Assembly: GCA_021798955.1 (NCBI GenBank)
Contig: JAJZBK010000002.1
Coordinates: 15,650 to 79,649, forward strand
DNA from: Actinomycetes bacterium
GTDB taxonomy: Bacteria > Actinomycetota > Acidimicrobiia > Acidimicrobiales > RAAP-2
Direction of reading: 5' to 3'
DNA: 64,000 bases
This document shows, piece after piece, positions 36,356-52,946 of this stretch. The position numbers were made by a program, and so were the translations under genes. The notes under the pieces were generated by a model that did not search any database, was not told the origin of the DNA, and worked only from the letters and a program-made list of their open reading frames with translations. Within the stretch, counting starts at the first letter, position 1. Each line of letters opens with the position of its first letter.

Positions 36356-36958
36356 TCATCGGGTGCCCGGCACCGGCCGCCGGTGGTAGAGGACCCCCTC
36401 CAGTGCGGCCAGCGACCCGGGCGGCGCCGGGTACGCCATCGGGTAGGACGACCGTGCCTGGCCCCCCAGGCCGTGGTCGTCGGTGGCCGAGCACCGTGCG
36501 GTGGCCCGTTCCAGGACGTCGAGGACGATGGCGATGAAGGCCACCTCGTCGGCCGGTTCGGCGTCGAGAAGGGAACGGGCCGCCGACGTCGCCGCCGCCA
36601 TCGAGGCCTGGTGGGCCTGCCACAGCGCCGCCTGGTCGTCACCGACAGCCGCTCCGACGTACGACGCCCACGCCCGGGCCGCGCCGGTGAGCTCGGCGTC
36701 CGCGCCGACCGTCACGTCGACCACGTCCAGCACCATGAGCCCGTTCACCGCCTTCCACCAGCGTGAGCCCGACGGCCCGTCCGCTACCCGGCCGCTCGTC
36801 ACCTCCCACTCGAGGAAGTCGGACAGTGCGGTGCCGAGCCCCAGGCCGGTGCGCCCGGGCCCCGGGTGGGCCGTGAAGAACGCGGCGAAAGCCTGGCGGC
36901 GGTCGTCCACCGCCAGCCCGATGGCCGCCTCCAACCGGTCTGCTTCGTTCCTCACCAT
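36356..36958 (-). CDS. Hypothetical 200-aa protein (last gene of the Mo-enzyme operon)
   Basis: The in-frame ATG at 36958 has GGGGAG upstream, 65 nt after the preceding gene. No motif was recognised. Confidence 0.5.
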   Translation of the reverse strand: MVRNEADRLEAAIGLAVDDRRQAFAAFFTAHPGPGRTGLGLGTALSDFLEWEVTSGRVADGPSGSRWWKAVNGLMVLDVVDVTVGADAELTGAARAWASYVGAAVGDDQAALWQAHQASMAAATSAARSLLDAEPADEVAFIAIVLDVLERATARCSATDDHGLGGQARSSYPMAYPAPPGSLAALEGVLYHRRPVPGTR

Positions 36959-37023
36959 CACCGTCTCCCCGGCGACGTCACCGCCGGCTCCGGGTGCGGC
37001 GCCAGCAGGACTGCTCCCCGGGC

Positions 37024-38238: not shown

Positions 38239-38723
38239 CAGAGCGAGGCTCCCGGGCCGGATCCGTGCGGCCACGCGGCCACCAGCGCCCCCACCAGCGC
38301 CACACCCAGCTCGATCCGCAGGAGCACGTCCATCACCCGGATCGACCGCATCCGGCGTCGCTTCAGCTCGGCCCGGTCCTCACCGGGTTCGATGCGGGCG
38401 TGCGACCGGGGATGGACGAGGAGGCCCATGACCGTCACCAACGACGCCAGCACCACCCAGGCGGCCCCGAGGGCGAGCCACCGGGCCACGGACAACCGAC
38501 CGGGACCGCCGGTGGCCTGCCACGCCACGCATGTGGCGGCGATGGCGACCAGCGAGGCGATGGCCAGCCACCGGTAGCGGCGCCCCATGACGTTGCACAG
38601 GACGCCCGTCTGGCCGGGGGGGACGTAACGTTGCAGCGGGCGCCAGACCAGCTCCATGAACAGGGCACCGCCCACGTACACGGCCCACTCGATGGTGAAC
38701 ACGTAGCCGAGCGCGGTGTGCAT
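38238..38723 (-). CDS. 4-TM membrane protein, paralogue B
   Basis: 161 aa. It shares the AVYVGG..(F/A)ME(L/F)V...Q R(Y/F)VPP.Q..VL block with the upstream paralogue. It has 1-nt overlaps (TGATG) at both ends. Confidence 0.6.
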   Translation of the reverse strand: MHTALGYVFTIEWAVYVGGALFMELVWRPLQRYVPPGQTGVLCNVMGRRYRWLAIASLVAIAATCVAWQATGGPGRLSVARWLALGAAWVVLASLVTVMGLLVHPRSHARIEPGEDRAELKRRRMRSIRVMDVLLRIELGVALVGALVAAWPHGSGPGASL

Positions 38724-39256
38724 CAGAGGATCCCGTTCCCGTAGGCGAGGGAGGCGCCCAGCAGGACCACGACCAGGGCGATGACGAGGTCGGCCCGGGT
38801 CAGCCAGGACACCCGGCGGGCAGCCACCTGCATGGCCTCGACCTGCTCGCCCACCCGAGCACCACCGCCTCGTCCACTGGCCTTGGCCGCCAGGCGGGGC
38901 CGGTACACGAAGGTGATGACCGAGCCGTTCACCACCAGCACGGCCCACAGGACCATCATGGCCAGCAGGGTGCGCCCCGAGCCGGTAGTGAAGATGTCGC
39001 CGCTCGACACCAGGTTCTGGTCCGACAGGGAGAAGAAGAGCAGCATGCCGCTGACGGGCAGCAGGGCGAGCGAGGACCACACCAGGACCAGGAACCGGTC
39101 GGCCGACTTCTGGGCCAGCACCTGGGCCTGGGCCGGGGGGACGAAGCGCTGTGCCGGACCGAGGACGAACTCCATGGCCACCGACCCGCCGACGTAGACG
39201 GCCACCGCAAGGAGGTGGAGGTAGGAGGCGAGAACCTGGACCCACGTGGCCGTCAT
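38723..39256 (-). CDS. 4-TM membrane protein, paralogue A
   Basis: 177 aa with four hydrophobic segments. It has an ATGA overlap with the upstream gene. Confidence 0.6.
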   Translation of the reverse strand: MTATWVQVLASYLHLLAVAVYVGGSVAMEFVLGPAQRFVPPAQAQVLAQKSADRFLVLVWSSLALLPVSGMLLFFSLSDQNLVSSGDIFTTGSGRTLLAMMVLWAVLVVNGSVITFVYRPRLAAKASGRGGGARVGEQVEAMQVAARRVSWLTRADLVIALVVVLLGASLAYGNGIL

Positions 39257-40728
39257 GCGTGCCTCTCCCCTCCGGTGGCGGCTCCGGGATCGGGCTGCCC
39301 CGCGTGCCAGGTGGCGAAGTGGTCCTCGATGGCGGGAGTGAGGCCGTCGGCACCGCCGTCGGGGATGAAGTACCGATGGTAGAAGCCGGTGTCGACGTGG
39401 TGGACCTGGACGGAGAGCTTGGCCCGCACCGGGTTGACGTACGCGGGGCAGCACCCGTGCTTGGCCACGATGTGCTCGACGGTGGCGATGGCCGCCTCCT
39501 CGGCCCAGTCAGAGAGGTGGGCACGGGGGTGGGCGCGCACCTCGTCTGCCACCTCCGGACGCCACGGGTCTGGGGCGCCGTCGAGGGCGCCGCCGGGTCC
39601 CTCACGCAGCGACCGGACGTAGCGCACGGCAGAAGCCGCGTCGGGGAAGCGGGGGGAGGGCACCATGACCGGCTCGAACACACCGGCCAGCCCCTGGCAC
39701 GTGGAGGTCTTCGCCGGGTTGGTGGCAGGGTCGCGCTCGAGGAACGAGAAGCCCAGCCCGGGCGAGATCTCCGGATAGGCACCGAGGAGGAAGTCGTCGG
39801 CGTACGACCCCGTGGCCCACGCCCCAAGCCCGAGCGCTTCGCACGCCAGGCGGATGTTCTGGACCATGCAGCCGACCTGGCCGGTGTGGAGGAGGAGGGC
39901 CAGCTCGTCGAAGGCGGGGATGGGGAAGCCCACCTCGAGGAAGCCGGGCCGGATCCACTCCTCGCACCCGGCGGGGTCGCCGGTGTCGGGGTCCTGGAGG
40001 TAGAAGCCGGACCACTCGTAGGAGACGAGGAGCTGGTTGAACCACTCGAGGCCCACGTCGCCCACGGGCACCAGCCACGTGCTCCCCGGCCGGTTCAGGT
40101 TGTACTGGCCCGCCCCCATCGGCCGGACGTTGTGGGTGGCCTCGGGGGCTCCCGGCCAGGCCACGTCGGGGCGGTGGTCGAGGACCTGGACCCGCCCGGC
40201 CCGGTACCACTCGAGGATCCTGCCGTAGTCCTCGGGGCCCCGGATCTCGACGGGTCGGGGCGGATCGGGCTCCGGCCGGTAGGCCCACACGCCGCTGTCG
40301 TCGATGACGAACAGGTCGACGCCGAGGTCACCGGAGGACGACGGGACCGTCCGCCCCCGGCGGTGGAGCATGCCGGCCAGGGCGCCCTGCACGGGGATGT
40401 CGGCCAGGGCCATGCCGTTGGGACCAGCGGCGACCCAGCACAGCAGGGCGGCCTCCGTCTCGGACAGCGGGACGGGCGATGCCGCGGACGCGTAGGCGAA
40501 GGGCCCCTCGGGCTGGGTGGCGGTGCGGTCTCCCGACCAGGAGAACGCCTCCTCCTCCCCCGTCTCCGCCCGGTAGCCGAGGCCCATGCGGCGGGTGCGG
40601 ACGGTGGCGAGCAGTTGGAACAGCGTTGGGGTCGAGGTGAAGGCGGCCGCCACCTCCGAGGGATCGCCCGCTCCGGTCGGTGCCGGCCCGCTGCCGGCGT
40701 CGTCGCCGGCCCGTCGCGAGAAGATCAT
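39253..40728 (-). CDS. Nitroreductase-superfamily (SagB/ThcOx-like) protein
   Basis: 491 aa. VRTRRMG resembles the RRSxR FMN motif, VPSSSGDLGVDLFVIDDSGVWAYRPE resembles SagB PSAGxxYPxExY, and VQNIRLACEALGLGAW is the nitroreductase QN..LAA.ALGLG motif. It has an ATGA overlap with the alpha-2 stop. Confidence 0.6.
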   Translation of the reverse strand: MIFSRRAGDDAGSGPAPTGAGDPSEVAAAFTSTPTLFQLLATVRTRRMGLGYRAETGEEEAFSWSGDRTATQPEGPFAYASAASPVPLSETEAALLCWVAAGPNGMALADIPVQGALAGMLHRRGRTVPSSSGDLGVDLFVIDDSGVWAYRPEPDPPRPVEIRGPEDYGRILEWYRAGRVQVLDHRPDVAWPGAPEATHNVRPMGAGQYNLNRPGSTWLVPVGDVGLEWFNQLLVSYEWSGFYLQDPDTGDPAGCEEWIRPGFLEVGFPIPAFDELALLLHTGQVGCMVQNIRLACEALGLGAWATGSYADDFLLGAYPEISPGLGFSFLERDPATNPAKTSTCQGLAGVFEPVMVPSPRFPDAASAVRYVRSLREGPGGALDGAPDPWRPEVADEVRAHPRAHLSDWAEEAAIATVEHIVAKHGCCPAYVNPVRAKLSVQVHHVDTGFYHRYFIPDGGADGLTPAIEDHFATWHAGQPDPGAATGGERHA

Positions 40729-43541
40729 CGGTCGACTCCTCCTCCCGCCGGGACTGCGGCGACCTCGACGAACACCGCCCGGTCGGCGGGGACCGGCTGC
40801 CACCCGAACGGTAGGTAGCGCAGGTGGCCGTACTTGCCCACCAGGTGCAGCCACTTGACCATGCCCGGCTCGACCTCGTTCGCGCCCTCCCACCGGCGGA
40901 ACATGTGCGGCTCGAAGCCGTTGTAGACGATGACCTGCCCGGGCCGCACCCGCCCGGTGACCCGCACCATGGCCTCGAAGGCGCCGTGGTCGTTGGACAC
41001 CCGCACCTTCTCGCCCTCTGCCACGCCGCGGGCGGCGGCGTCCTCCTCGCTCATCACCACCAGAGGGCGTCCCCGGTGGGTGCCGAGCAGGTGGCGGTTG
41101 CCCATCCCGATCGAGTGGACCGTCCAGCGCGAGTGGCCGCTGGTGAGGACGAGGGGGTACTCGCCCCCCATGCGGGGCGGCTCCTTGTGGGTGGGGAGCT
41201 GCTCCCCCGCCTCGAGGAACCACGGGTGGTCGATGTAGAACTGGGCCCGCCGGGTCAGCGTCGGGTAGGGCAGGTGCTGTTCGACGTGCCAGCGGAACGC
41301 CGTCATCACCTCGTCGTCACGCACGTCGGCCGCCACCGACAGACCCGGCGCGAAGGTGCCGAGCCCGGTGAAGCGGATGCTCCCGTCGCGGCGCAGGCGC
41401 TCGACCGAGCTACCCGGCGGCAAGGTGCCGGCGTCGGCCGAGTCGCGCACCCACTCGTCGAGGACCATCTCCTCACCCGACAGCTGGCCCCCGAGGTCGA
41501 AGTCCTCCCCCAGCCGGGCGGCGTGGCGGGTCTGGCGGCGGGCGTCGTCGTACTCGTCGAGCCCGACAGCGACGGCCCGCTCGGCGATGGTCCGGGCGAG
41601 CGCGGAGAAGATCTCCCACTCGGTGCGGGCCTCGCCCCGCGGTGGGGTGGCCGCGTCGGAGAAGGCCAGCCGCAGCATGTGGGTGATGGGGTACTGGACG
41701 TTGACCCGCTCGTACTGCATGGCCGCCGGGAGCACCAGGTCGGCCTGGAGGGCGGTGGCCGACATGCGGAAGTCGACCACCACCACCTTGTCGAGCTTCG
41801 GCCACAGGGTGTCGACCAGTTTCGCCCGCCCGCCCCGGGCACGGCGCATGGGGTTCGTCCCCACGGTGAAGAGCACCCGCGGGGGGGTCGACGCCCCCGG
41901 CCGAGCCACCCCGCCCCACCAGCCACGACGGAGGGCGTCCCGCAGGTAGTCGCCGAACGGCTTGGTCATGGTCGGATCCGACCACTCCGGCCGGTTCCAC
42001 GTCTCGTCGTAGCCGGCATGGTGGTAGTTGAAGAACACGGGCGGCGCCGCGGTCCCGGAGCTGGTGGCCAGGGCGAGCAGCTGGTTCCCGAGCATTTCGT
42101 CGGTGGCGTCGGGATCGCGCTTGCGCATCTGGGCCATGGCCTGGTCGATGCCGTCGAGCACCCGGGCCGTCTCCTCCACGCCCGGGCGCGTCTTCATCGA
42201 GAACAGCAGGTAGCCGTCCAACCCGGCCAGGGCCAGGCCCTGGATCCCGGTGCCGGGTCGGCCCCAGTTGCCGGTGAGGGCCAGCACCAGGCACATGGAG
42301 CGCTCCATCAAATCGCCGTGAAAGTACTTCGGCCCGTTGAAGCCCTCGAGGATCTTGACCCGCCGCCCGGCGACCAGGTGGGCCAGCCGGCGGATCGTGG
42401 ATGCGGGCACGCCGCAGATGGCGGCGGCGTCCTCCGGCGCGTAGACGCCCAGGTGGCGGCGGAGCAGGTCGAGGACGGTGACCACCTCCACCTCGGTGCC
42501 GTCGGCCAGCGTGACGGTGAAGGGGCCCTCGAGCACCGGGTCGAGCGTGCCCAAGTCGAGCGTGCCCCTGGGGGCGGCGGTCAGGCCGCCGGCCCGGTCC
42601 CACAGGTGGAAGGTCTCCTCGTCGCCGCCCGCCCGGAGGTCTCGCTGGCGCAGGTAGCGGCCGGTGTCGCTCCGCACCAGCAGCGGCAGGTCGGTCTGGG
42701 TGAGGACGAACTGGCGGTCCCACAAGTCCTCGTCGAGCACCACCCGGCACATGGCGAGGGCGAGGGCGGCGTCGGTGCCGGGCCGGACGGGGACGTAGAG
42801 GTCGGAGCCGACGGCCGATGCGTTGTAGTCGGGGGCGATGGCCACCACCTGGGCGCCCCGGTAGCGGGCCTCGGAGATGAAGTGGTGGTACGGGATCGAC
42901 GTGTAGGCCGGGTTCGAGTGCCACAGCAGGAGCACGTCGGCGAGGAAGGTGTCGTCCACCGTGCTGGCACAGGAGAACTTGCCGAAGGTCAGGTGCTGGC
43001 CGGTGGGGAGGTCGTTGACCAGCCCGTTGGCGTCGAGGGTGACGGCGCCGAGGAGGGCGGCCAGGCGGAGGAACGGCGCCTGGGCCAGCAGGCCGCCCTC
43101 CACGCTCTCCTCGAACACCACCGCTTCTGGGCCGTCCTCGTCGAGGACGGCAACGACCGCCTCGGCCACCTCGGCCAGCGCCTCCTCCCAGGTGATCTGC
43201 TCCCACTTCCCGCTACCCCGCTCCCCCACCCGGCGCAGTGGGTGGAGGACGCGGTCCTCGCTCGACAGCTGGGCGCTCCACGCCCCGCCTTTCTGGCAGC
43301 CGAGCGGGTTCATGTCGGGCACGCCGGACGCCACCGGGTCGATGGTGCCGGCCTGTTCCTCGAACGCCACCTCGCCGTCCCGGCTGAACACCCGGTACGG
43401 GCAGCCAGCCAGGCAGTTCAGGCAGTGGGTGCCCCAGGTGACGCGCTCCCACGTCCACCGGGACCGGTAGTCGTCCGCGGTGGCTCCCGTTCCCGGCCGG
43501 TCGCCCGCGCTCGCCGGGGGTGCGGCGTCGCCCTCACCCAC
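40725..43541 (-). CDS. Type-II DMSO-reductase-family molybdopterin oxidoreductase, orphan alpha paralogue 2
   Basis: The in-frame GTG at 43541 overlaps the chaperone gene by 8 nt, giving 938 aa. Motifs are WGTHCLNCLAGCPYRV, NPLGCQKG and LVNDLPTGQH. There is no Tat signal. The 1437-aa ORF in the track is a read-through artefact. Confidence 0.85.
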   Translation of the reverse strand: MGEGDAAPPASAGDRPGTGATADDYRSRWTWERVTWGTHCLNCLAGCPYRVFSRDGEVAFEEQAGTIDPVASGVPDMNPLGCQKGGAWSAQLSSEDRVLHPLRRVGERGSGKWEQITWEEALAEVAEAVVAVLDEDGPEAVVFEESVEGGLLAQAPFLRLAALLGAVTLDANGLVNDLPTGQHLTFGKFSCASTVDDTFLADVLLLWHSNPAYTSIPYHHFISEARYRGAQVVAIAPDYNASAVGSDLYVPVRPGTDAALALAMCRVVLDEDLWDRQFVLTQTDLPLLVRSDTGRYLRQRDLRAGGDEETFHLWDRAGGLTAAPRGTLDLGTLDPVLEGPFTVTLADGTEVEVVTVLDLLRRHLGVYAPEDAAAICGVPASTIRRLAHLVAGRRVKILEGFNGPKYFHGDLMERSMCLVLALTGNWGRPGTGIQGLALAGLDGYLLFSMKTRPGVEETARVLDGIDQAMAQMRKRDPDATDEMLGNQLLALATSSGTAAPPVFFNYHHAGYDETWNRPEWSDPTMTKPFGDYLRDALRRGWWGGVARPGASTPPRVLFTVGTNPMRRARGGRAKLVDTLWPKLDKVVVVDFRMSATALQADLVLPAAMQYERVNVQYPITHMLRLAFSDAATPPRGEARTEWEIFSALARTIAERAVAVGLDEYDDARRQTRHAARLGEDFDLGGQLSGEEMVLDEWVRDSADAGTLPPGSSVERLRRDGSIRFTGLGTFAPGLSVAADVRDDEVMTAFRWHVEQHLPYPTLTRRAQFYIDHPWFLEAGEQLPTHKEPPRMGGEYPLVLTSGHSRWTVHSIGMGNRHLLGTHRGRPLVVMSEEDAAARGVAEGEKVRVSNDHGAFEAMVRVTGRVRPGQVIVYNGFEPHMFRRWEGANEVEPGMVKWLHLVGKYGHLRYLPFGWQPVPADRAVFVEVAAVPAGGGVDR

Positions 43542-44193
43542 CGAGCCGCTCGGCCACGTAGGCGCGGTCGGCCGACACGAACGCGGCCAGCTGGTCCAGC
43601 GTCCACCCCACCAGCGGCCCGGCACCGCGTCCGGCCGACGCCACCAGGCCAGGGACCCAGTCGAGCACGTGGGCGTCGAGGAAGTCCCGCTGGGCCCGGC
43701 GGAACGAGGTGGCCAGGCGGGGCGACGGCGTGGCCGCCTCGCGGAAGCACAGGTACTGGAGGAAGTCGAGCTCGGTGGCCAGGTGGTCGGCCGGGCGGGG
43801 TGCGGCGTCCGATGCAGCCAAGCCGAAGTACTCGTACTCCCGCCGCACGGCGGCGATCTCCGCCTCCCGGTCGGCCCGGCCGCCCCCGCCCAGGAGGGCG
43901 CCGCCGCCGAGGACCCGCTCGTGGTCAGCGGCGAACGATGCCGCGTCGGCGCCGGCGGGGACCTCCACCGGCCCGATGGCGAAGCCGAACGGCAGCAGCG
44001 ACGCCGCTTCGGTGAGGCCCGCCACCCACTTGCCCTCGGCCGCCTGGTCGAAGAGATCTGCCGGTGCGGTGGCGAACCAGCCGCCGAAGAACTGGTACAC
44101 GGCGCTGCGGGCCGTGGTCTCGTTCTCCTCCACCTCGATGGGGCCGGCCTCGGCCGCGCTGAGCTCGAGCCCCTGGAGCGAGTAGGTGAACAT
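43534..44193 (-). CDS. TorD/NarJ/EbdD-like redox-enzyme maturation chaperone (delta)
   Basis: 219 aa. The EYEYFG...DHLATELDFLQYL block is typical of TorD-family chaperones. Confidence 0.8.
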   Translation of the reverse strand: MFTYSLQGLELSAAEAGPIEVEENETTARSAVYQFFGGWFATAPADLFDQAAEGKWVAGLTEAASLLPFGFAIGPVEVPAGADAASFAADHERVLGGGALLGGGGRADREAEIAAVRREYEYFGLAASDAAPRPADHLATELDFLQYLCFREAATPSPRLATSFRRAQRDFLDAHVLDWVPGLVASAGRGAGPLVGWTLDQLAAFVSADRAYVAERLGG

Positions 44194-44197
44194 GGCG

Positions 44198-45301
44198 TCA
44201 CTCCCCTTCCGTCGCTCCGGCCCTGGTCCGACCCAGCTGCACGGCCACCCGTTCCGGTGACCGATCGAGGCCGGCCGGATCGACCGTGTACGGGCCGAAC
44301 AGGTCGTGCCACCGGTAGACGATCAGCGTGTCGAGCAGTTCCGAGGTGCCGCCCGACCGTACCGTCGCCATCTCGTCCCGAAGGGTGTCGAGCGCAGCGT
44401 GGACGCGGGGTCCGAACAGCGACTCGAGGTACTCGGGCGGGATCCGCGGCGTCTCCTCGTCGACGGAGAAGTCGTCGTGCAGTCGGTAGGGCGAGAGGGG
44501 CGGCACATAGAAGATGTTCGGGCCCGTCCCGTACTCCTCGTGGAGAGGCAGCGCCACCTTCCACTCGTGCACCAGCCGGTGGATGGGGCCAGCCGGATCG
44601 GCGGCGTCGCCCACGAACACCAGACGCCCCGGGCACTGGCGGGCACAGGCGGGGGCCACTCCCTCCTCCAGCCGGGGGAAGCAGGCGATGCAGTGCTGGC
44701 TGACGCCCCGGACGTAGTTGAAGGAGATCTTCTTGTAGGGACAGGCCTCCATGCAGAAGCGTGCGCCCTGGCAGACGCTCTCGTCCCGGAGCACGATCCC
44801 GTCCTCGTGGCGCTTGTACATGGCGCCCGACGGGCAGGCCGACACGCACACCGGACGAGTGCAGTGGTTGCACAGCCGGGGCAGGTAGAAGTAGTAGGAG
44901 TTCGGGTAGGTCCCGCCCCCCTGGTCCTCGTCCCAGTTCATCCCCCACCGGGTGGTGCCGTCCCCCCGGTCGACGGGCTGGAGGTGGGCGTCGCGGCCCC
45001 GGCCGCCGAAGAGCACCTCCTGGTAGTTGAAGTCCCACCCGCCGCCGAACTCGGCACGGGTCGGCTGGTGGCCGGGCACGGGGGTGTCGTCACGCCACCC
45101 ACCCCCCATGTCCTCCCACGCCTTCGGGGTGCCGAGGCCGGGCTGGGTGTTCACGCTCATCCACCACTGGTGCTCCTCCCCCTCCTCGCGGGTCCACAGC
45201 ACCTTGCAGGCCACCGAGCACGTCTGGCAGCCCATGCACTTGTTGAGGTCGAAGACCATGGCCAGCTGGCCGGCCGCCCCCTGCTGCGTCATCGTCTGCA
45301 C
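44198..45301 (-). CDS. Type-II DMSO-reductase-family Fe-S beta subunit (EbdB/NarH-like)
   Basis: 367 aa with four cluster motifs: CMGCQTCSVAC, CNHCTRPVCVSACP, CQGARFCMEACPYKK (3Fe-4S type) and CIACFPRLEEG...CARQCPGR. Confidence 0.9.
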   Translation of the reverse strand: MQTMTQQGAAGQLAMVFDLNKCMGCQTCSVACKVLWTREEGEEHQWWMSVNTQPGLGTPKAWEDMGGGWRDDTPVPGHQPTRAEFGGGWDFNYQEVLFGGRGRDAHLQPVDRGDGTTRWGMNWDEDQGGGTYPNSYYFYLPRLCNHCTRPVCVSACPSGAMYKRHEDGIVLRDESVCQGARFCMEACPYKKISFNYVRGVSQHCIACFPRLEEGVAPACARQCPGRLVFVGDAADPAGPIHRLVHEWKVALPLHEEYGTGPNIFYVPPLSPYRLHDDFSVDEETPRIPPEYLESLFGPRVHAALDTLRDEMATVRSGGTSELLDTLIVYRWHDLFGPYTVDPAGLDRSPERVAVQLGRTRAGATEGE

Positions 45302-45335
45302 CGTCCTTCGTCCGCGACCGAGCCGCTCCCGTGCC

Positions 45336-45956
45336 TCATGCCTGCACCGCCGACCACTCGCTGCTCACCGCTCCGATGCCCGCCCGCTCCTCGTTGGCAC
45401 CGTTCCACACGGCCACCGCCACCCGGCCGCGGTCGCCCAACGCCGAGCGGGGCCCGGTCAGCACCACCGACCATCGGATGCCGTCCACCGACGACGCCGC
45501 GTCGAGGCTGGCGCCGTCGGGAGCGGGGCGGAACATGCCCGGGCCGGTGGAGACCAGGTGGCGGACGGCGGGCATGCCCTTCTGGATGGGGAGCCGGTCA
45601 CGCCACTGCCACACCAGGACGGGCGACGTGTGGTCGCCCATGGTCACCGGATCGGCCGGCCCATCCCCCTGAGGGAAGAGGACGGCACAGGCGTCGGGGA
45701 ACTCCCCCGCGATGGGCCCCGAACCGTCCCACTCCAGACGCATCAGCAGGCGGTCGCCGTGAGTGGCCACCGAGACGGAGGCCGACGGCGTGGCGCCGTA
45801 GGGGCGGTCGCGCCAGGCCGCCCGGACGTAGGCGTTCCGCTGGGCGTCGACGGGCACCGGGACGAGAGGCACCGTCACCGGTGGGGCCGCGGCCCACGCC
45901 GGGTCGTCCGGTGCCAGTGCCTCGGCGCCCAGCTCCAGCGCGGTCAGGTCGGTCAC
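45336..45956 (-). CDS. EB_dh-like gamma subunit (putative heme-b subunit), no signal peptide
   Basis: 206 aa. Size and blocks (LLMRLEWD, VAVAVWNGANEERAG..SSEW) resemble EbdC/SerC/DdhC. GTGA overlap with the alpha-1 stop. Confidence 0.7.
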   Translation of the reverse strand: MTDLTALELGAEALAPDDPAWAAAPPVTVPLVPVPVDAQRNAYVRAAWRDRPYGATPSASVSVATHGDRLLMRLEWDGSGPIAGEFPDACAVLFPQGDGPADPVTMGDHTSPVLVWQWRDRLPIQKGMPAVRHLVSTGPGMFRPAPDGASLDAASSVDGIRWSVVLTGPRSALGDRGRVAVAVWNGANEERAGIGAVSSEWSAVQA

Positions 45957-48799
45957 GCGTCACCCCCCTCGTCGGGCGCCCCGATGCGCTCGAAGTCACA
46001 GGGCACACCCCGGTCGACGGGGATGGGCTGCCACTCGCCCATCGAGTAGTTGATGTGCCCGTAGCCGCCGGCGAATGCGATCCACTTCACCATGCCGGCT
46101 TCGATCTCGTTGGCGCCCTTCCAGTCCGCGTACTGGTGGCCGTCCCAGCCGTTGTAGGAGATGATCTGGCCGGGTCGGACCCCGGGTGCCACCTTGGCCC
46201 GGGCCTGGAACGACGTGATGTCGTTCCACACGCGGATGAGGTCGTCGTCGGCCACCCCCCGGGCGGCGGCGTCCTCCACCGCCACCTCGACCAGCGGCTC
46301 ACCCCGGTGGGTCTGGAGGATGACCGGGTTGGCCTGGTTCATCGAGTGGATGCTCCAGCGGTTGTGGCCCGACGTCATCCGCAAGGGCTGGTTGCCCCCC
46401 GACGGCGGGTTCGGCTTGTGGACCGGCATCTCCTCGCCCGCCTCCAGCCACCACGGGTGGTCGATGTAGAACTGGGCGCGGCGTGCGTAGGTGGGGAACG
46501 GGTGGCCGTCCTCCACGTGGCTGCGGAAGGGCGAGTGGGTCTTGTTCGTCTCGAAGGGCGACGCCTGGGCCAGAGCGAACGGGCTGGTGCCCCAGCCGAT
46601 GAAGCGCTCGTAGCCCTTCTCCCGCATGGTAGCCAGGTTGGTGCCCTCGGGCAGGGTGCCGATGTAGACGGAGTCCCGCAGGATCTCGTCGGCCACCTGC
46701 TCGTCGGAGGTCAGGTAGCCGTTCAACGTGTAGCGGTCGACCATGTCGGCCGGCTGGAACGTGGCGCCGGTGCGGTTGGCGTACTCGGACATGCCCCGGG
46801 CCTCGGCCCGGCGAGCCAGGGCGTGGAGGAGGAGCCGGTAGATGTCCCACTCGGGCTTGGCCTCGCCGGCCGGCGTGGCGTTGCGGTCCGAGAAGGTCAG
46901 GCGCATGGTGTGAGACGTCGGGATGTGGAAGTTGACCTTCTCGTAGTGCTGGGCCGCCGGCAGGACGATGTCCGAGTTGAGCCCGGTGAAGTTGAGCCGG
47001 AAGTCGATCGACACGATGAGGTCGAGGTTGTCCCACAAGTTGGGACCGAGCTGGGTCGAGCCGCCCCGGGTGCGGCGCAGCATGTTCCCGCCGCACTCGA
47101 TGAGGACGTGGGGCGGCGATTCGGGTCGGGGCTCGTCGAGGCCGGCCCACCAGCCCGAGGCGATGGCCTCCTCGACGTACTCGTCGAAGGTGCGAGGCAG
47201 GGTGGCGTCCCCCCACTCCTTGCGGTTCCACCGCTCCTTGTAGTTCCCCTGCCAGTACCACCAGAAGGCGGGCGGTGACCCCCGCATGCCCGTGACCTGG
47301 CCGCCGGCCGACCGCACCTGGTTGGTCAGGCGCGACAGCTCGCGCACGGCCAGCTCGTCGGTGGTGATGCTGGGGTCGGCGTCGCGGAGGGCAGCGGTGC
47401 CCATCTCCTGGGCGGCGAGGAGCTGCTCGGCGCCTTCCACGCCCGGGACCGTCTTCACCATCAGGGTGAACATCCCGTCGGCCATGCCGATCATCCACGA
47501 CCGGATGCCGGTGCCGTGCTTGCCCCAGTTGCCGGTGACCCCGAGCAGGAGGCACATGGCCCGCTCGATCAGGTCGCCGTGGTAGTACTTGCACGAGTTC
47601 CAACCGAGCATGATGTTCGTCCGCTTGGTGGCAGCCTTGCGGGCCAGCATGCGGGTCACATCCGGGTGGATCCCCGTCGTCACCTGGCTCTGTTCGGGCG
47701 TGTAGCGCTCGTTCAGGTGGCGGGTCAGACGGGCGAGGACGGGCTCGACGGTCACCGTGGTGCCATCGGCCAGCGCCACCTCGAAGGTGCCCTCCAGGGC
47801 CATCTCCCGGCCCCCGAGGAGCAGGTTGCCCCGGTCGGCCTCGACCAGGCCGGCGTCCGGGTCCCAGTGGTAGAGCTGGTCCTCCCGGCCGAGGCCGGCG
47901 CCCTTCACGTCGGACGCCCGCAGGAACCGCCGGGTGTCGGTGCGGACCAGGCAGGGCAGGTCGGTCTGCTCTCGCATGAAGGTGACGTCGGCGATGCCCT
48001 CGTCCAGGATGACCTGCACCATGGCCAGGGCCAGAGCGGCGTCGTCACCGGGTGTGATGGGCACGTGGTAGTCGGCGTGCATGTGCGACGCGTTGAGGTC
48101 GGGGGAGATCGACACGACCTCGGCGCCGTGGTACCGGGCTTCGAGCATGTAGTGGTAGAAGGGGATGCGGGTGAAGGCCGGGTTCATGTGCCAGATGAGC
48201 ACGAGCTCGGAGTGGAACCAGTCGTCGGCCGACGACACCGGGTTCCACTTCCCGAACGTCTCGTGCAGCCCGATGGAGAAGTCGTTGAAGGACGGGTGGA
48301 GGTCGAGCGTCCGTCCCCCGATCACATTGAAGAAGCGATCGGTCGGGAACACGGCGGCCACCTCGGGAGTACCCTCCCGAACGATCGACTCCGGCCCCCC
48401 GACGGCGATGGCGTCGAGCATGGCGTCGGCCACCTGGTCGAGGGCCTCGTCCCAGCTGATGCGCTCCCACTGGCCGCTGCCGCGCTCGCCCACCCGCCGC
48501 ATCGGGTACAGCAGGCGGTCGCCGTCGTAGAGCTGCTGGCTCCAGCACGCTCCCTTGTTGCACCCCATCGGGTTGGCGTCGGGCACACCCGGCTCGGTGG
48601 GGACGAACGTGGCAGCCGGCTCCTCCCGGAGGACCCGGTCACCGGCGGAGTAGACCCGGTACGGACAGTTGCCCGGGTAGCAGTCGATGCAGTGGGTTCC
48701 CCACCCGACCGACTCCCAGGACCATCGGGCCCGGTAGGCGTCCTCCGCCCCCTTCTTCCCTCCGGTACGCGGCACCTCGACTACGTCTTGGACGTCCAC
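45953..48799 (-). CDS. Type-II DMSO-reductase-family molybdopterin catalytic subunit, alpha 1
   Basis: 948 aa with WGTHCIDCYPGNCPYRV (H-x3-C-x4-C), NPMGCNKG and SFNDFSIGLH. The N-terminus MDVQDVVEVPRTGGKKGAEDAYRARW has no RR motif, and 48799 is the first start after an in-frame stop. Confidence 0.9.
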   Translation of the reverse strand: MDVQDVVEVPRTGGKKGAEDAYRARWSWESVGWGTHCIDCYPGNCPYRVYSAGDRVLREEPAATFVPTEPGVPDANPMGCNKGACWSQQLYDGDRLLYPMRRVGERGSGQWERISWDEALDQVADAMLDAIAVGGPESIVREGTPEVAAVFPTDRFFNVIGGRTLDLHPSFNDFSIGLHETFGKWNPVSSADDWFHSELVLIWHMNPAFTRIPFYHYMLEARYHGAEVVSISPDLNASHMHADYHVPITPGDDAALALAMVQVILDEGIADVTFMREQTDLPCLVRTDTRRFLRASDVKGAGLGREDQLYHWDPDAGLVEADRGNLLLGGREMALEGTFEVALADGTTVTVEPVLARLTRHLNERYTPEQSQVTTGIHPDVTRMLARKAATKRTNIMLGWNSCKYYHGDLIERAMCLLLGVTGNWGKHGTGIRSWMIGMADGMFTLMVKTVPGVEGAEQLLAAQEMGTAALRDADPSITTDELAVRELSRLTNQVRSAGGQVTGMRGSPPAFWWYWQGNYKERWNRKEWGDATLPRTFDEYVEEAIASGWWAGLDEPRPESPPHVLIECGGNMLRRTRGGSTQLGPNLWDNLDLIVSIDFRLNFTGLNSDIVLPAAQHYEKVNFHIPTSHTMRLTFSDRNATPAGEAKPEWDIYRLLLHALARRAEARGMSEYANRTGATFQPADMVDRYTLNGYLTSDEQVADEILRDSVYIGTLPEGTNLATMREKGYERFIGWGTSPFALAQASPFETNKTHSPFRSHVEDGHPFPTYARRAQFYIDHPWWLEAGEEMPVHKPNPPSGGNQPLRMTSGHNRWSIHSMNQANPVILQTHRGEPLVEVAVEDAAARGVADDDLIRVWNDITSFQARAKVAPGVRPGQIISYNGWDGHQYADWKGANEIEAGMVKWIAFAGGYGHINYSMGEWQPIPVDRGVPCDFERIGAPDEGGDA

Positions 48800-48868
48800 G
48801 TCACTCCCCCCGCGCCATCCGGCCCGCTGCGCCGGCTCGTGTCGCCTGTCCGAATTGGACTGTTTCCT

Positions 48869-48898
48869 TATCTACCGCTCCCGGATTCGAAAAGTCAA
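48869..48898 (-). promoter_or_regulatory. Candidate sigma-70-type promoter of the Mo-enzyme operon
   Basis: The minus strand reads TTGACT-N18-TAGATA within a locally AT-rich stretch (48840-48960), about 70 nt upstream of the alpha-1 start. Confidence 0.3.
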
Positions 48899-49097
48899 TG
48901 CCACAACTTCTGTTTTATTGTCTCACTGGATGTACTGGTCGGTCGCCACGATCGTGGGACCGCGTGACGGCGGTGCCCGCCACCGTCATGGGACGGGTAG
49001 AACTGGCCCACCCTTCTGCCAGCCATGGGACCGCCCCTGAACCCACCAGTGCCGGCCGGTCATCAACTCGACTGGGCACCTCGATCCGCAACGGAGG

Positions 49098-49655
49098 GTG
49101 TGCCCGATGGCATGCAGGGAGGTGTCAGCGACGCAGGTCAAAGAAGTGCTGCGACGGTGGCTTCGCGACGACGCGGGGCTCCGGTCCGCCGCTGCCGTCT
49201 CCGACGTCGACCGGAAGACGGCTCGCCGCTACGTGGACGCGGCGGCAGCCCTCGGGCTCGATCGCAGCGGCGGTGAGGACCAGCTCACCGACGAGTTGAT
49301 CGGGGGGTCTGCGGGGCCGCCTGGTCGTTCTTCGGGGGCGTCTTCCCGATCCTCATCCCCGACAACCTGACGCCGGTCATCACCAAGGCCGAGCCCACCG
49401 AGCCGAGGATCAACGACACGTTCCTCGAGTACGCACAGGACCGGGGGTTCCTCGTCGATGCCGCCCGGGTCCGCTACCCGAAGGACAAGCCGCGGGTCGA
49501 GCGCCAGGTGCCCTTCGTGCGCGGTCGGTTCTTCAAGGGTGGGACGTTCGTCGACCTGGCCGATGCCCAGCGCCGGGCCGAGGCGTGGTGTGCGAAGGGT
49601 GCGGGCATGCGCATCCACGGCACGACATGGTGCCGACCTACCGAGGGCGCCGAAG
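49098..49655 (+). pseudogene. IS21-family istA transposase remnant with internal deletion and frameshift
   Basis: The N-terminal HTH part (...LRSAAAVSDVDRKTARRYVDAAAALGLDRSGGEDQLTDELIG) joins near 49300 in another frame to AAWSFFGGVFPILIPDNL...YPKDKPRVERQVPFVRGRFF...DLADAQRRAEAWC...RIHGTTWCRP. The DDE core and istB are absent. Confidence 0.7.
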
Positions 49656-49901
49656 CCGTCTGGCACGTCCACCCTGCGGCGGAGCGGGCGATCGCGATGG
49701 CGAGGTTGCAGCAGGTAGCTGCGATCTCGAGGTCCCAACAGATTCGAGGTCCCGCCAGAACGGTGGCCCCCCACTCGCGTAGACCGCGGATCCCCCGGTG
49801 GAGCGGGGCGCAGCAGAGCTGACCCTGACGGTGGGGCGGGCGGGCGACGGCGCCTGTTCGCCCGCAAGGTGGTTCTGACCGTCGTGGTCAGCGAGCTCCG
49901 G

Positions 49902-50579
49902 TCAGGCGACCTGACCGCTCGGGGAGCGGCGCTGCGAGGATCGGCGGCGAACGTGCTCCAGGTGGATTGCCGTGAGGAAGGGCAGGACGAGCAGAGCGAC
50001 GAACGCCAGGACGCCGACAGCTGGCGGAAGTACCGTTCCTCCGACGCACTGCTCGACGGTAGGCCTGCCTGGCCCCCCGCTGCTGGACCCACAGATGGCC
50101 ACGGGGCGCGTGGCGAGCACGAAGAGACCGAGCAGACCACCGGGGACGACGAACGTGCCGAGGAGCTTGTCTCGCATGGAGAAGATCGTCGAAGACCCGA
50201 GCGCGACGACGCCGCCGAGCCACCCCACCACGCCGACGACCAGCGAGAGCGGCGCCGGACCAGCACCGCCGACGACGTAGCCCACGACCCCGCCGAACAG
50301 CAAGAGCCAGGGGACCCAGGCATCCACGTGCCGTTCCAGCCGAAGAGGCATGCCGATTCCCGCTTCGGCGGCGATTGCCTCCGGATCTCCCATCCGATCG
50401 AGCAACGAACGCAGACCCGCCTCGTCGAGAGGGTCGAGGCCGGTCCGACCCTCGGCGATGTGGCCGGCGACGTCCTCGACCATCTGCCGGCGCACCTCGG
50501 GAGGGAGGCCACGCAGCGCCGCATCCAGCTCGTCGAGGTACCGCTCGACCATGTCATCGGTCCCCTGCCTGATCTTCAT
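49902..50579 (-). CDS. DUF1700/HAAS-like membrane protein (PadR partner)
   Basis: The ATG at 50579 overlaps the PadR stop (ATGA). The N-terminus VERYLDELDAALRGLPPEVRRQMVEDVAGHI is followed by TM segments. Confidence 0.6.
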   Translation of the reverse strand: MKIRQGTDDMVERYLDELDAALRGLPPEVRRQMVEDVAGHIAEGRTGLDPLDEAGLRSLLDRMGDPEAIAAEAGIGMPLRLERHVDAWVPWLLLFGGVVGYVVGGAGPAPLSLVVGVVGWLGGVVALGSSTIFSMRDKLLGTFVVPGGLLGLFVLATRPVAICGSSSGGPGRPTVEQCVGGTVLPPAVGVLAFVALLVLPFLTAIHLEHVRRRSSQRRSPSGQVA

Positions 50580-50926
50580 GCAGTGCTCCCCTCGCCGAGG
50601 ATGTGGTCGACCGTGTCCCGGAAGACCTTCCAGTAGTCGATAAAGCTCGCCAGCGATCGCTCCCCCGCCTCGGTGATGCGGTAGTAGCGGCGGGGCGGGC
50701 CGGCCGTGGACTCCTGCCACGTGGTCTCCACCAGACCGTTGCGCCGTAGGCGGGCCAGGAGCGGATAGATGGTCCCCTCGCTGGCGATCAGCCCATCTGC
50801 ACCGGCAAGGATCCGAGCGAGGTCGAAGCCGTACCGCTCACCCTGGTGAAGCAGGGCCAGAACGCAGTGCTCGGCGGTGCCTCGGCGAAGCTGCGCCACC
50901 CACGGGACCTCATCGCCAGGTACCAT
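50576..50926 (-). CDS. PadR-family transcriptional regulator
   Basis: 116 aa from the ATG at 50926 with a winged helix (HCVLALLHQGERYGFDL...GTIYPLLARLRRNGLVE...RRYYRITEAG). Confidence 0.85.
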   Translation of the reverse strand: MVPGDEVPWVAQLRRGTAEHCVLALLHQGERYGFDLARILAGADGLIASEGTIYPLLARLRRNGLVETTWQESTAGPPRRYYRITEAGERSLASFIDYWKVFRDTVDHILGEGSTA

Positions 50927-51161
50927 GCACCATAAGCTAGTGGAGGTTACCGAGTCTGCCAAAAGGCGTCTGCGGCACCGGCGTCCACCGTGGGCCACCA
51001 CCTCGCCCGGTGGCCGCAACGGGCACAACAGAGCCGGAACGACCCCAGGGGCTTCTGCGCCACACCTCCGGTCACGTCCGCCAGCACAGATCCGGTCCTC
51101 GACACCGATCGAGCCGTCTCGAGGACTTCAGAAGTGGCGACGGGATGCCGATCCCACCCCC

Positions 51162-52946
51162 ATGACCCTGGGCAGGGAGCAACCAGCAGAGGAGCCGGCG
51201 GCGGAGCCACGGGCACTGGCCCACGTCGGACCAGGAGCGGACAGCCGCTCCGGACCCGGACCCGGAGGCGACGATGGAGAAGGAACGGCGACGCGGGCTG
51301 TCGATGCCGTCGTTGCGACGTTGCTCGCCCAGCATCCCCGAGGGACCGTCGTCGCCCTCAACGAGGACGCCGTCTTCGTGGCCATCCCGCCGAGCGTGCT
51401 GGTCGCCTCGACCCACCGGCTCGTCCAGGAGGGCTCGGCCATCGAGTTCGTCATCCCGCAGGACCGCTCGGTCATCGTCAACCTCTACGTCCAGGCCCGC
51501 GTCACCGGGTTGGCGACGGCCACCGTCCACCTGGTCGACGAGCCCGATCGGCCGGTCACCGCCCACTTCGTCGACTGCCGGTCGGTGTACGGCGTCATCA
51601 TGGGCGTCGTCAGCGAGCAGCTCGACGACGTGCACGACCTCGTCGCCCAGTGGACCGCCCCGCACCTCCCCCCACGGCTCGCCCGGGCCGTCAAGGACGA
51701 GTCGGCCGTCTACGTCTCCTTCGACGAGGGCTTCTGCCAGATCCTCGGCTGGGACCGTGACGAGCTGGTCGGCGAGCGGGCCCTCCAGATCGTCCACCCG
51801 GACGACCACGACCTCGCCATCGCCAACTGGGTCGACATGCTGGAGCACCCCGGCCCCGGCCGGCGCGTCCGTCTCCGCCACCAGCACAAGGACGGGCACT
51901 GGGTCTGGCTCGAGATCATGAACGACAATCGTCTGGACGACCCCGACAACCCTGTCGTGGTTGCCGAGATGGTCGACATCTCGGACGAGATGGCCACCCA
52001 CGAAGCCCTCCGGGCCAGCGAGCAGCTCCTACGCGAGCTGGCCCAGACCATCCCCATCGGGCTCGTCCACAGCGACCCGTCGGGTCGGGTCCTCTTCGCC
52101 AACGACCGCCTCGAAGAGATCCTCGGTGCCGACGGCATCCAGTCGGTCGACGACCTCGTGGCCGCAGTCGCACCGGAGGACGCCGAGGCCGTGGCGCTCG
52201 CCGTCCGCTCGACGGTGGACACCCAGACGGGGGCCGACCTCGAGCTGCGCGTGCCGTCGGCCGTCGGCTCCCTGCGTCACTGCACCCTGCGGCTCCGTCC
52301 GCTCGTCAACGACGACCAGGTCGTCACCGGGATCATCGGCTGCGTCGAGGACGTGACCGACAGCGTCCGGATGCGCCAACGGCTCGAGGTGCAAGCCACC
52401 TTCGACCCGCTCACCGAGTGCTACAACCGCGCGTCGTCGCTGGCGGCGCTGCAGTCCGCACTCCACCAGATCGGCGGGCACGGCCCGGTCGGTGTGGCCA
52501 TCGCCTACGTCGACCTCGACGAGTTCAAGCCGGTCAACGACACCTACGGGCACGCCACCGGCGACGACCTCCTCGTGGTGGCGGCCAAGCGGATCCGCCA
52601 GTCGGTGCGGTCCAGTGACATCGTCGGCCGCCTCGGCGGCGACGAGTTTCTGGTCATCTGCTCGAAGGTCGGCTACCCGGGCGACGCCGTGCGTATCGGG
52701 GATGCCGTCGCGACCCACCTGTGCCAACCGGCGACCGTCGGCGAGCTCGAGCTCGACATCCGGGCGAGCGTGGGCGTCGCCTGGACCGACGATCCCGACA
52801 TCGACCCCGAGCGTCTGGTCGCAGCAGCCGACGAGGCGATGTACCGGTCGAAGCACGACCGCCGCTGCGAGCCCGCCCTGGCCGATCCGTTCCTCGTCGG
52901 CGACCACGAGGCCCCCCACGACGCCGCCGTACCTGCTGCGTCCTGA
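51162..52946 (+). CDS. PAS-domain diguanylate cyclase (GGDEF)
   Basis: The ATG at 51162 gives 594 aa. It has PAS-like regions and a C-terminal GGDEF domain (RLGGDEFLV, YGHATGDDLL). Confidence 0.85.
   Translation: MTLGREQPAEEPAAEPRALAHVGPGADSRSGPGPGGDDGEGTATRAVDAVVATLLAQHPRGTVVALNEDAVFVAIPPSVLVASTHRLVQEGSAIEFVIPQDRSVIVNLYVQARVTGLATATVHLVDEPDRPVTAHFVDCRSVYGVIMGVVSEQLDDVHDLVAQWTAPHLPPRLARAVKDESAVYVSFDEGFCQILGWDRDELVGERALQIVHPDDHDLAIANWVDMLEHPGPGRRVRLRHQHKDGHWVWLEIMNDNRLDDPDNPVVVAEMVDISDEMATHEALRASEQLLRELAQTIPIGLVHSDPSGRVLFANDRLEEILGADGIQSVDDLVAAVAPEDAEAVALAVRSTVDTQTGADLELRVPSAVGSLRHCTLRLRPLVNDDQVVTGIIGCVEDVTDSVRMRQRLEVQATFDPLTECYNRASSLAALQSALHQIGGHGPVGVAIAYVDLDEFKPVNDTYGHATGDDLLVVAAKRIRQSVRSSDIVGRLGGDEFLVICSKVGYPGDAVRIGDAVATHLCQPATVGELELDIRASVGVAWTDDPDIDPERLVAAADEAMYRSKHDRRCEPALADPFLVGDHEAPHDAAVPAAS

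Follow-up and report, generated by a model that had tools for sequence, protein, structure and literature searches.

To our knowledge, enzymes of the ethylbenzene dehydrogenase (EBDH) type provide the only water-based, rather than O2-based, route to hydroxylate unactivated C-H bonds, and all studied examples that we know of are periplasmic enzymes from a few anaerobic Proteobacteria that pass electrons to cytochrome c via haem b. EBDH itself is periplasmic, with a twin-arginine translocation (Tat) signal on alpha, a signal on gamma, and the gene order ABCD. Here we describe a locus for a predicted EBDH-type molybdoenzyme with the gene order alpha-gamma-beta-delta, which lies in a 64,000-nt stretch of contig JAJZBK010000002.1 from an actinobacterium (hereafter the window, to which all coordinates refer).

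In reviews, EBDH, S25DH, Ddh, Ser, Clr and Pcr are all listed as periplasmic (PMC10609526, PMC7411048), as the initial annotation of the window had stated for the characterised members of this clade. EBDH-like hydroxylases are defined as enzymes whose gamma holds haem b and which deliver electrons to a high-potential cytochrome c (PMC6153880). The S25DH1-4 and S26DH enzymes of Sterolibacterium denitrificans are likewise assigned a periplasmic location, bear Tat signals and bind haem b (PMC7411048, PMC6016249). Like the locus described here, this system comprises several alpha paralogues in one genome, some with a shared beta and gamma and one chaperone (PMC6016249), and it involves isoprenoid side chains and a CtmAB-family delta-24 desaturase (PMC11061730), homologues of which flank our module in 11 loci. 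No partner resembling the accessory proteins Y, CopD-like or AMP-like described below is mentioned for it (PMC6016249, PMC7411048, PMC11061730). As judged from its sequences, the clade to which the window locus belongs stands apart in that three defining features of EBDH-like hydroxylases are missing: the periplasmic location, haem b, and scores above the curated family cut-offs. The initial annotation had allowed that characterised homologues of the same order and topology might already be numerous; we found no characterised homologue that combines the alpha-gamma-beta-delta order with a signal-less topology, and no literature on a Tat-less or cytoplasmic EBDH-like clade, subscription journals being outside the coverage.

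A four-gene core of the ethylbenzene dehydrogenase type

The core comprises alpha1 (45953-48799, minus strand), a 948-aa catalytic subunit of the molybdenum-bis(molybdopterin guanine dinucleotide) (Mo-bisMGD)/FS0 type with a GTG start; gamma (45336-45956, minus), a 206-aa EB_dh-fold subunit; beta (44198-45301, minus), a 367-aa four-cluster Fe-S subunit with three [4Fe-4S] motifs and one 3Fe-4S-type motif; and delta (43534-44193, minus), a 219-aa assembly chaperone of the NarJ/TorD type. The four had been described as coupled by GTGA or 4-34 nt junctions, and the coordinates and translations agree: the GTG of gamma overlaps the alpha1 TGA as GTGA, and gaps of 34 nt and 4 nt separate gamma from beta and beta from delta. 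The alpha1 GTG at 48799 is the first possible start downstream of an in-frame stop, and GGGGGGAG, 5 nt ahead of it, serves as a Shine-Dalgarno sequence. Alpha1 is not extendable because no start codon lies between that stop and the GTG; upstream extension was ruled out for alpha1 and gamma alike by the in-frame stop ahead of each. The GC content at third codon positions (GC3) was 0.91-0.95 for all four genes, the same range as over the six open reading frames (ORFs) that passed the GC3 filter. Decay into pseudogenes was ruled out, as all eleven ORFs of the operon described below are intact, the six passing the filter have high GC3, and orthologues are kept across phyla.

Searches with the TIGRFAM type II alpha, beta, heme-b and chaperone models gave the four 'DMSO reductase family type II' models as the best NCBIfam matches of the four proteins: TIGR03479 for alpha1 (818 bits, E 8e-246), the heme-b model for gamma (E 4e-24), TIGR03478 for beta (447 bits, E 3e-134) and TIGR03482 for delta (74.6 bits, E 1e-20), yet all below the curated cut-offs, which are taken up below. 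The four EbdA-D equivalogs were the second-best models. In Pfam, gamma matched EB_dh (35.7 bits, cut-off 33.3) and delta matched Nitrate_red_del (E 7e-14), which upholds the assignment of an EB_dh-like gamma and a TorD-like delta. When alpha1 was compared with solved structures by phmmer, EbdA scored 668 bits, PcrA 433, NarG 183 and NxrA 83. EbdABCD of Aromatoleum aromaticum (PDB 2IVF) is the best solved relative of both alpha1 (2ivf_A, E 2e-199, ~37% identity) and gamma (E 2e-10), and shares with the window proteins the subunit sizes, the FS0 His/Cys3 ligands, the Asp Mo ligand, Lys450, the four beta Fe-S groups, the EB_dh-fold gamma and the TorD/NarJ chaperone. It differs in its signals, its gene order, its His192 and the lack of extra alphas and of five accessory genes.

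The FS0 motif of alpha1, H-x3-C-x4-C...C, reads THCIDCYPGNC ... NPMGCNKG, and by alignment alone the Asp of SFNDFSIG falls at the position of the EbdA Mo ligand Asp223 and NarG Asp222. The FS0 His/Cys3 and the equivalents of Asp223 and Lys450 were invariant in 46 A1-type orthologues of alpha1. Beyond this group, the FS0 ligands were invariant in alpha groups A1, A2, A3, g3 and g1, the Lys450 equivalent was likewise invariant, and an Asp occupied the Asp223 column in 135/135 aligned clade alphas. Beta contains the groups C-x2-C-x2-C-x3-C, C-x2-C-x4-C-x3-CP, C-x5-C-x3-CP (3Fe-4S type) and C-x2-C-x11-C-x3-CP, all of which were kept in 75 orthologues. The cluster motifs first noted in alpha and beta are thus present and conserved among orthologues. 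Moreover, the alpha1-gamma-beta-delta set recurs with unchanged order in dozens of related loci, beyond what chance would give. The four genes are therefore firmly predicted to encode an EBDH-type enzyme of the type II DMSO reductase family, with Mo-bisMGD/FS0, EB_dh-fold and Fe-S subunits and a NarJ-type chaperone.

A divergent respiratory nitrate reductase or nitrite oxidoreductase of the NarGHJI or cytoplasmic NxrAB type would agree with the window enzyme in facing the cytoplasm, in the Asp ligand of its Mo centre and in its NarJ-like chaperone. NarGHJI is itself a type II enzyme on the cytoplasmic side; its alpha has a short N-terminus that does not direct export, and its electrons are exchanged with a membrane anchor and not with a soluble cytochrome, although for the M1/M2 proteins described below this last point is an analogy only. 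We consider this identity very improbable. The narG and narH models gave only 217 bits each (cut-offs 1084 and 524), far under the cut-offs; alpha1 has 948 aa against ~1230 and beta 367 aa against ~500 in the much larger NarG and NarH; NarI, a di-haem cytochrome b unrelated to CopD, is absent; NxrA scored merely 83 bits; and cytoplasmic NarG was the most distant reference in the alpha tree. NarG or Nxr identity was ruled out by these scores, sizes and the tree, and membership in the Ebd clade rather than NarGHI, as first proposed, is well supported. Closer systems are ClrABDC and the haloarchaeal periplasmic NarGH, which have the same family and subunit set and are 31-33% identical to alpha1. 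Both are reductases with Tat on alpha and a hydrophobic gamma N-terminus, and the Clr and Haloferax Nar references have the orders ABDC and ABCD given earlier for the characterised members.

Absence of export signals throughout the clade

Export signals were sought with a regular expression for Tat signals (RR motif followed by a hydrophobic stretch) and with N-terminal hydropathy, using positive and negative controls. No RR motif with a hydrophobic stretch was found in alpha1, beta, gamma, delta or any other operon protein. The regular expression did detect RRRFL in Ideonella ClrA and SRRTFL in Haloferax NarG, in which the FS0 His lies at residues 68 and 109, respectively, and detected nothing in a cytoplasmic NarG of Rhodococcus. 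The N-terminal hydropathy maximum of gamma was 1.47, against 2.48 for ClrC and 3.56 for the Haloferax gamma, and gamma aligns with the deposited EbdC chain from residue 14 of that chain, leaving no room for a signal. The three window alphas enter the TIGR03479 profile only at positions 42-46, and the leader part of the profile therefore has no counterpart in them. These results bear out the earlier reading of an unextendable alpha without an RR motif and a gamma without a hydrophobic signal.

The same was true of relatives. The 120 best alpha homologues (57-96% identical; Acidimicrobiia, Chloroflexota, Gammaproteobacteria and others) have only about 30 residues, with a range of ~20-50, ahead of the FS0 His, and a credible Tat signal was found in 0/120, with one chance RR match. 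By regular expression and hydropathy, the A2, A3, g3 and g1 alphas also had no Tat signal. The absence of Tat and Sec signals is thus a predicted property of the whole clade and not of the window locus alone. As no subunit has an export signal, the enzyme would be assembled and kept on the cytoplasmic side.

It could be argued that the enzyme is exported after all, through a signal that escaped recognition, a mis-called start or a Tat-bearing partner, and is an ordinary periplasmic EBDH/S25DH-like enzyme. Detection was by regular expression and hydropathy, and actinobacterial Tat signals can be atypical. Against this stand the in-frame stop upstream of alpha1 with no start codon between, the equally short N-termini of 120 homologues from five classes, the correctly detected Tat controls, the lack of any operon protein with an RR motif and hydrophobic stretch, and the alignment of gamma to EbdC with no space for a signal. 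Export therefore has little to recommend it, and we give it hardly any weight beside a cytoplasmic location.

The gamma subunit lacks the haem b ligands

In EBDH, haem b is held on gamma by Met108 and Lys201. EbdC Met108 aligns with Met106 of the window gamma, and Lys201 aligns with Gly195. Among the ~45 core-cluster gammas tallied, the residues at the Met/Lys positions were (L,A), (I,G), (M,G), (K,K), (M,A) or (I,A), and never Met with Lys. No His, Met, Lys or Cys was conserved at >=90% in 44 core gammas. Gammas of the g1 cluster served as an internal control, and 12/16 of these retain both Met and Lys. Gamma has probably lost haem, and we regard it as an EbdC homologue that persists as a structural remnant without haem b ligands. 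With these ligands missing, electrons from the last beta Fe-S cluster could therefore not reach cytochrome c via haem b.

The g1 cluster is a second, Tat-less alpha-gamma-beta(-delta) cluster in Chloroflexota loci (L043, L045, L047, L049, L052, L053, L056, L057, L060, L063 and L065-L067), where it is divergent from the AMP-like gene. Its gamma residues suggest a cytoplasmic but haem-containing relative.

The core belongs to a conserved multi-alpha operon

The initial annotation had treated the four genes as a complete set. Instead, they form the 5' part of a conserved ~16 kb module that includes two more alphas and five accessory genes. The downstream genes were called by GC3 frame analysis and translation. 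Alpha2 (40725-43541, minus) is a second catalytic-type subunit of 938 aa, 47% identical to alpha1 and without a Tat signal, and begins with a GTG that overlaps the stop codon of delta. Next comes Y (39253-40728, minus; 491 aa), which overlaps alpha2 as ATGA; then M1 (38723-39256, minus), a 177-aa CopD-family membrane protein with four long helices and an ATGA overlap with Y; its 161-aa paralogue M2 (38238-38723, minus), with a one-base overlap with M1; and the AMP-like protein (37024-38238, minus; 404 aa), which corresponds to the N-terminal lobe of an adenylate-forming enzyme and has a one-base overlap with M2. Further downstream are X (~36356-36982, minus), a protein of ~200 aa and uncertain start, with no family assigned and found only in Acidimicrobiia-type loci, and alpha3 (32868-35606, minus), a third catalytic-type subunit without a Tat signal, with 912 aa from an ATG that orthologues support. 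The start/stop overlaps join delta-alpha2, alpha2-Y, Y-M1, M1-M2 and M2-AMP-like, and by this layout alpha1-gamma-beta-delta-alpha2-Y-M1-M2-AMP-like-X-alpha3 is confidently predicted to be one translationally coupled unit. The FS0 ligands, the Asp and the Lys are retained in all three window alphas and are invariant in 64 orthologues of alpha2. Between X and alpha3, the ~750 nt at 35607-36355 show raised GC3 in one minus-strand frame (ORF 35603-36298) with an Arg/Pro/Gly-rich translation and no matches, and may be a gene, a decayed gene or a spacer.

No Pfam family was found for the window Y. Its family is tight, with ~170 clusters that are all >=52% identical and each named 'hypothetical'; Y is 53% identical between the window actinobacterium and Gammaproteobacteria, and the window protein is 100% identical to that of an 'Actinomycetota bacterium' metagenome-assembled genome (MAG). 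An AlphaFold2 model of Y (pLDDT 72, pTM 0.77) was searched against the PDB with Foldseek, and the top 50/50 matches were members of the nitroreductase superfamily, including ThcOx, McbC and BmdC (best E 5e-4, TM 0.2-0.55). A profile search of PDB sequences returned nitroreductases only, weakly (E >=0.03), NCBIfam gave a SagB domain (E 6e-4), and a full HMMER search gave 593 representatives, mostly of 400-480 aa, some of which match PF00881 weakly. Together these suggest a putative, remote nitroreductase-type, SagB/ThcOx-like fold for Y. Protein P0454 (863 aa) is a C-terminal fusion of a distant Y-family domain to an MpaB/Lcp-type (rubber oxygenase/farnesyl-cleaving) catalytic domain; read as a Rosetta stone, it may hint at a role of the wider Y family in handling isoprenoid chains. 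Distant Y relatives were rejected as a functional clue, as the plasmid-borne ones in cultured Rhizobium, Rhodobacter and Haladaptatus are annotated as 'hypothetical proteins' and have no Mo enzyme as a neighbour.

M1 matched Pfam CopD PF05425 with 37.2 bits (cut-off 32.1), and the family is also assigned to nearly all of the 120 M1 homologues listed. M2 matched it only at E 0.06 but is related to M1 by BLASTP (E 1e-10). His14, Tyr21, Met28 and Glu29 are invariant in M1, and Met23, Glu24, Cys43 and His104 are conserved in M2; the M1 structure model (pLDDT 84.5) has four long helices. In the AMP-like protein, the P-loop and the TGD Asp are not conserved and the C-terminal lobe is missing, so that it is probably not an adenylating enzyme; its N-terminus MPKTIAxTPSWYWP is invariant.

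Conservation and phylogeny of the module

Synteny was assessed by tblastn of the eleven window proteins onto 85 related loci from Acidimicrobiia, Thermoleophilia, Chloroflexota and Alpha- and Gammaproteobacteria, and independent gene calls with precomputed Pfam matches agreed with it. The block alpha2-Y-M1-M2-AMP-like was found wherever the flanks allow, with M2 undetected in a few Solirubrobacterales and gammaproteobacterial loci. The module core thus spans at least five bacterial classes. The host of the window is an actinobacterium, as the initial annotation had it, but the system as a whole extends well outside that group. In most loci alpha1-gamma-beta-delta lies directly upstream of the alpha2 block, and in some Acidimicrobiia downstream. 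As the alpha-gamma-beta-delta arrangement recurs, its gene order is a character of the clade. Extra alphas are common, with two to five paralogues per locus and five in L086. Clustering separated the A1 type, followed by gamma in 34/46 cases, from the A2 type, followed by Y in 63/64 cases, as distinct orthologous groups. At 10001-12817 of L087 (Candidatus Amarobacter glycogenicus), an orphan A1-like alpha, 58% identical, is a neighbour of a short-chain dehydrogenase, while beta, gamma and delta are all missing from the 10 kb around it, and clade alpha genes can accordingly be dispersed within a genome. A separate scan for Y, with one genome per species, gave 150 species-level genomes that carry it.

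These arrangements bear on the possibility that the operon encodes two separate enzymes, one made of alpha1, beta and gamma and the other a self-contained Mo/flavin enzyme of alpha2 and Y, in which FS0 would pass electrons directly to the Y cofactor and which M1/M2 and the AMP-like protein would serve. The block from alpha2 to AMP-like is invariant while alpha1-gamma-beta-delta may lie upstream, downstream or >10 kb away (L021, L031), alpha2 and Y overlap as ATGA, and both are as conserved as beta, with ~60% and 53% identity between phyla. Yet alpha2 retains all beta-dependent features of an alpha in its FS0 ligands, the invariant block has no second beta, and the two blocks are contiguous and co-oriented in most loci and translationally coupled in the window. 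We regard two enzymes as possible but doubtful, and retain the reading in which the alphas share one beta/gamma pair.

An alpha tree was built by neighbour joining (NJ) on an alignment of 882 columns, using Kimura distances and 200 bootstrap replicates, with EbdA (the only hydroxylase), ClrA, periplasmic NarG and cytoplasmic NarG as references. The core clade (A1, g3, A2 and A3) was recovered at 99.5%, and its union with EbdA, as sister, at 100%. Outward followed the g1 group (81%), then ClrA and periplasmic NarG, with cytoplasmic NarG as root. Although this is an NJ and not a maximum-likelihood tree, it places the alphas with EbdA and outside NarG, as the initial annotation had anticipated; NxrA was compared by score only (83 bits). 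One clade member is labelled 'steroid C-25 hydroxylase alpha subunit' by JGI.

Neighbouring genes and substrate clues

The remaining ORFs in 80 loci were clustered to find recurrent neighbours. These were an acyl-CoA dehydrogenase (17 loci), a tandem pair of flavoproteins of 545-650 aa (11), a radical SAM/SPASM protein (8), a nitroreductase (7), MobB (5), Rrf2 (5), thiolase (4) and major facilitator superfamily (MFS) proteins (4), along with a ChsH2_C-type OB-fold protein and short-chain dehydrogenases. The flavoproteins are homologues of the alpha and beta subunits of the Sterolibacterium delta-24 steroid desaturase, of the limonene dehydrogenase CtmAB family. Against the sequences of Table S2 of Zhan et al. 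2024 (PMC11061730), full-length identities were 27-31% to the alpha and 32-40% to the beta subunit (E down to 2e-123), and the covalent-FMN His is retained in 19/20 flavoproteins. The pair occurs in L012, L016, L020, L021, L027, L031, L032 (2919-6339), L035, L070, L072 and L085, within ~1 kb of alpha2 in several of these. In Sterolibacterium the delta-24 desaturase supplies the substrate of the Mo-dependent S26DH2, and its family oxidises allylic positions of isoprenoid chains; its closest uncharacterised homologues are from Pseudomonadales, Halieaceae and Acidimicrobiales (PMC11061730), all of which also carry the module. A radical SAM/SPASM protein of ~430 aa that resembles anaerobic sulfatase maturases lies beside the module in L012, L024, L029, L033, L036, L037, L038 and L084, and it and MobB may be maturation factors.

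The neighbours and the tree are also relevant to whether the enzyme works in the opposite direction, as a cytoplasmic reductase in which NAD(P)H via Y, or quinol via M1/M2, would feed beta and the Mo centre to reduce an oxyanion or an N- or S-oxide for detoxification or assimilation. In favour of this, Nar, Clr, Pcr and Ser are among the many reductases of the type II family, and only EbdA is a closer relative than ClrA and periplasmic NarG. Oxidation of NAD(P)H is the usual activity of nitroreductase-family proteins, NarGHI likewise combines orientation to the cytoplasm with a membrane anchor, and MFS transporters lie upstream in some loci. Nevertheless, at 100% bootstrap the alphas join EbdA, a hydroxylase, and not ClrA or NarG; the nearest structural neighbours of Y include FMN-dependent dehydrogenases and oxidases (ThcOx, McbC, BmdC, SagB) and not NAD(P)H nitroreductases alone; and the 2-5 alpha paralogues per locus with desaturase, acyl-CoA dehydrogenase and thiolase flanks suit organic catabolism better. 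A reductase is thus unlikely, and oxidation of organic compounds is the direction followed below.

Proposed function

We lean towards the reading that the operon encodes a cytoplasmic EBDH-type enzyme with several coupled alphas, a shared beta/gamma pair, a haem-less gamma, a new electron exit and an activity in isoprenoid-type C-H oxidation. By analogy with the Sterolibacterium isoenzymes S25DH1-3, in which alpha1-3 combine with beta3gamma3 (PMC6016249), the alphas would use the single beta/gamma pair in turn, and alpha1 and alpha2 would serve different steps or substrates. Electrons would leave the last beta Fe-S cluster to a new partner instead of haem b and cytochrome c; candidates for the exit are the CopD-type pair M1/M2, as a NarI-like anchor toward the quinone pool, and/or the putative nitroreductase-fold protein Y. 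The chemistry would most likely consist in the hydroxylation or dehydrogenation of C-H bonds with water and without oxygen. Its substrates would be compounds of a lipid-like kind, probably isoprenoids or sterol-type molecules, that are imported or CoA-bound and therefore cytoplasmic.

A more specific version, which we put forward as a rather doubtful conjecture, is a membrane-associated cytoplasmic machine that oxidises isoprenoid methyl or methine carbons without O2. Here, obligatorily paired A1 and A2 hydroxylases would perform consecutive water-dependent steps on one Fe-S wire, as S25DH and then S26DH do, with the haem-free gamma as a scaffold and Y and the CopD pair as the exit.

Several observations weigh against the reading that we favour. 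Actinomycetota and Chloroflexota are expected to use menaquinone, whose potential is low for a quinone that would have to take up the electrons of C-H hydroxylation. The NCBIfam scores fall under the curated cut-offs for all four subunits (alpha 818/985, gamma 85/170, beta 447/481 and chaperone 75/152 bits), and these are therefore divergent family members. EbdA His192 is not conserved among the clade alphas, every group having either a gap or a different residue at its position. The assignment of Y to the nitroreductases is built on weak scores, M1 and M2 have just one conserved His apiece, and Foldseek of the M1 model against the PDB gave nothing significant (best FdnI, E 0.22, from which no claim is drawn). 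The tree is an NJ tree with four outgroup references, and S25dA, CmdA, SerA, DdhA and PcrA are absent from it. Every related locus comes from a MAG, including all of the best 80 of the 150 species-level genomes with Y. Finally, the desaturase-like pair was found neither in the 64-kb window nor in most loci, and the remaining neighbours are generic lipid-metabolism genes. With no such pair in the window, an isoprenoid substrate is therefore a lead and not proof.

Genomic setting

The rest of the window consists of housekeeping genes (argS, lysA, hom, thrC, rho, prfA, leuA and ilvE). On one side the Mo cluster is flanked by a tRNA-Arg(CCG) gene (31948-32022, plus) and a HicA toxin gene (32293-32508, plus) with a probable HicB just upstream, and on the other side, at ~49090-49830 (plus), lies a frameshifted, truncated istA remnant of the IS21 family with 66-72% nucleotide identity to actinobacterial plasmid istA. 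Because of these flanks and its patchy distribution across phyla, the cluster is probably a horizontally acquired genomic island. No att-type repeat of the tRNA-Arg 3' end was found in the window, and direct repeats in the region merely reflect the three alpha paralogues. ARAGORN placed a tRNA-Gln at 25316-25396 (plus) within the rho ORF (23952-25970, minus); it is not confirmed at the Rfam gathering threshold and is probably a false positive.

A promoter and terminator scan of 32-50 kb gave no promoter-like site by the rule applied, and terminator-like sites occurred at chance level. A candidate TTGACT-18 nt-TAGATA at 48898-48869 is our own, unverified reading. No riboswitch or other RNA was found upstream of alpha1. 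Upstream of the operon are a PadR regulator and a HAAS-domain membrane protein (49902-51028, minus) and a divergent PAS-GGDEF protein (50877-52946, plus), and in L001 and L086 Rrf2 regulators adjoin alpha1. Regulation seems to be lineage-specific.

Implications

If our reading is true, a widespread cytoplasmic lineage with a haem-free gamma and novel partner proteins would shift where this chemistry is expected, to Acidimicrobiia, Thermoleophilia, Chloroflexota and marine Proteobacteria. It also raises the concrete bioenergetic question of what accepts electrons inside the cell. On the more specific conjecture, EBDH-type C-H activation would extend to Gram-positive, menaquinone-based, aerobic lineages for which it has no prior description. 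Co-expression offers a way to test the gene set that the conserved module delimits, and its soluble, signal-free enzymes could serve in the regioselective hydroxylation of sterols and terpenoids. The metagenomic labels 'ethylbenzene dehydrogenase' and 'steroid C25 hydroxylase' on genes of this clade are probably wrong.

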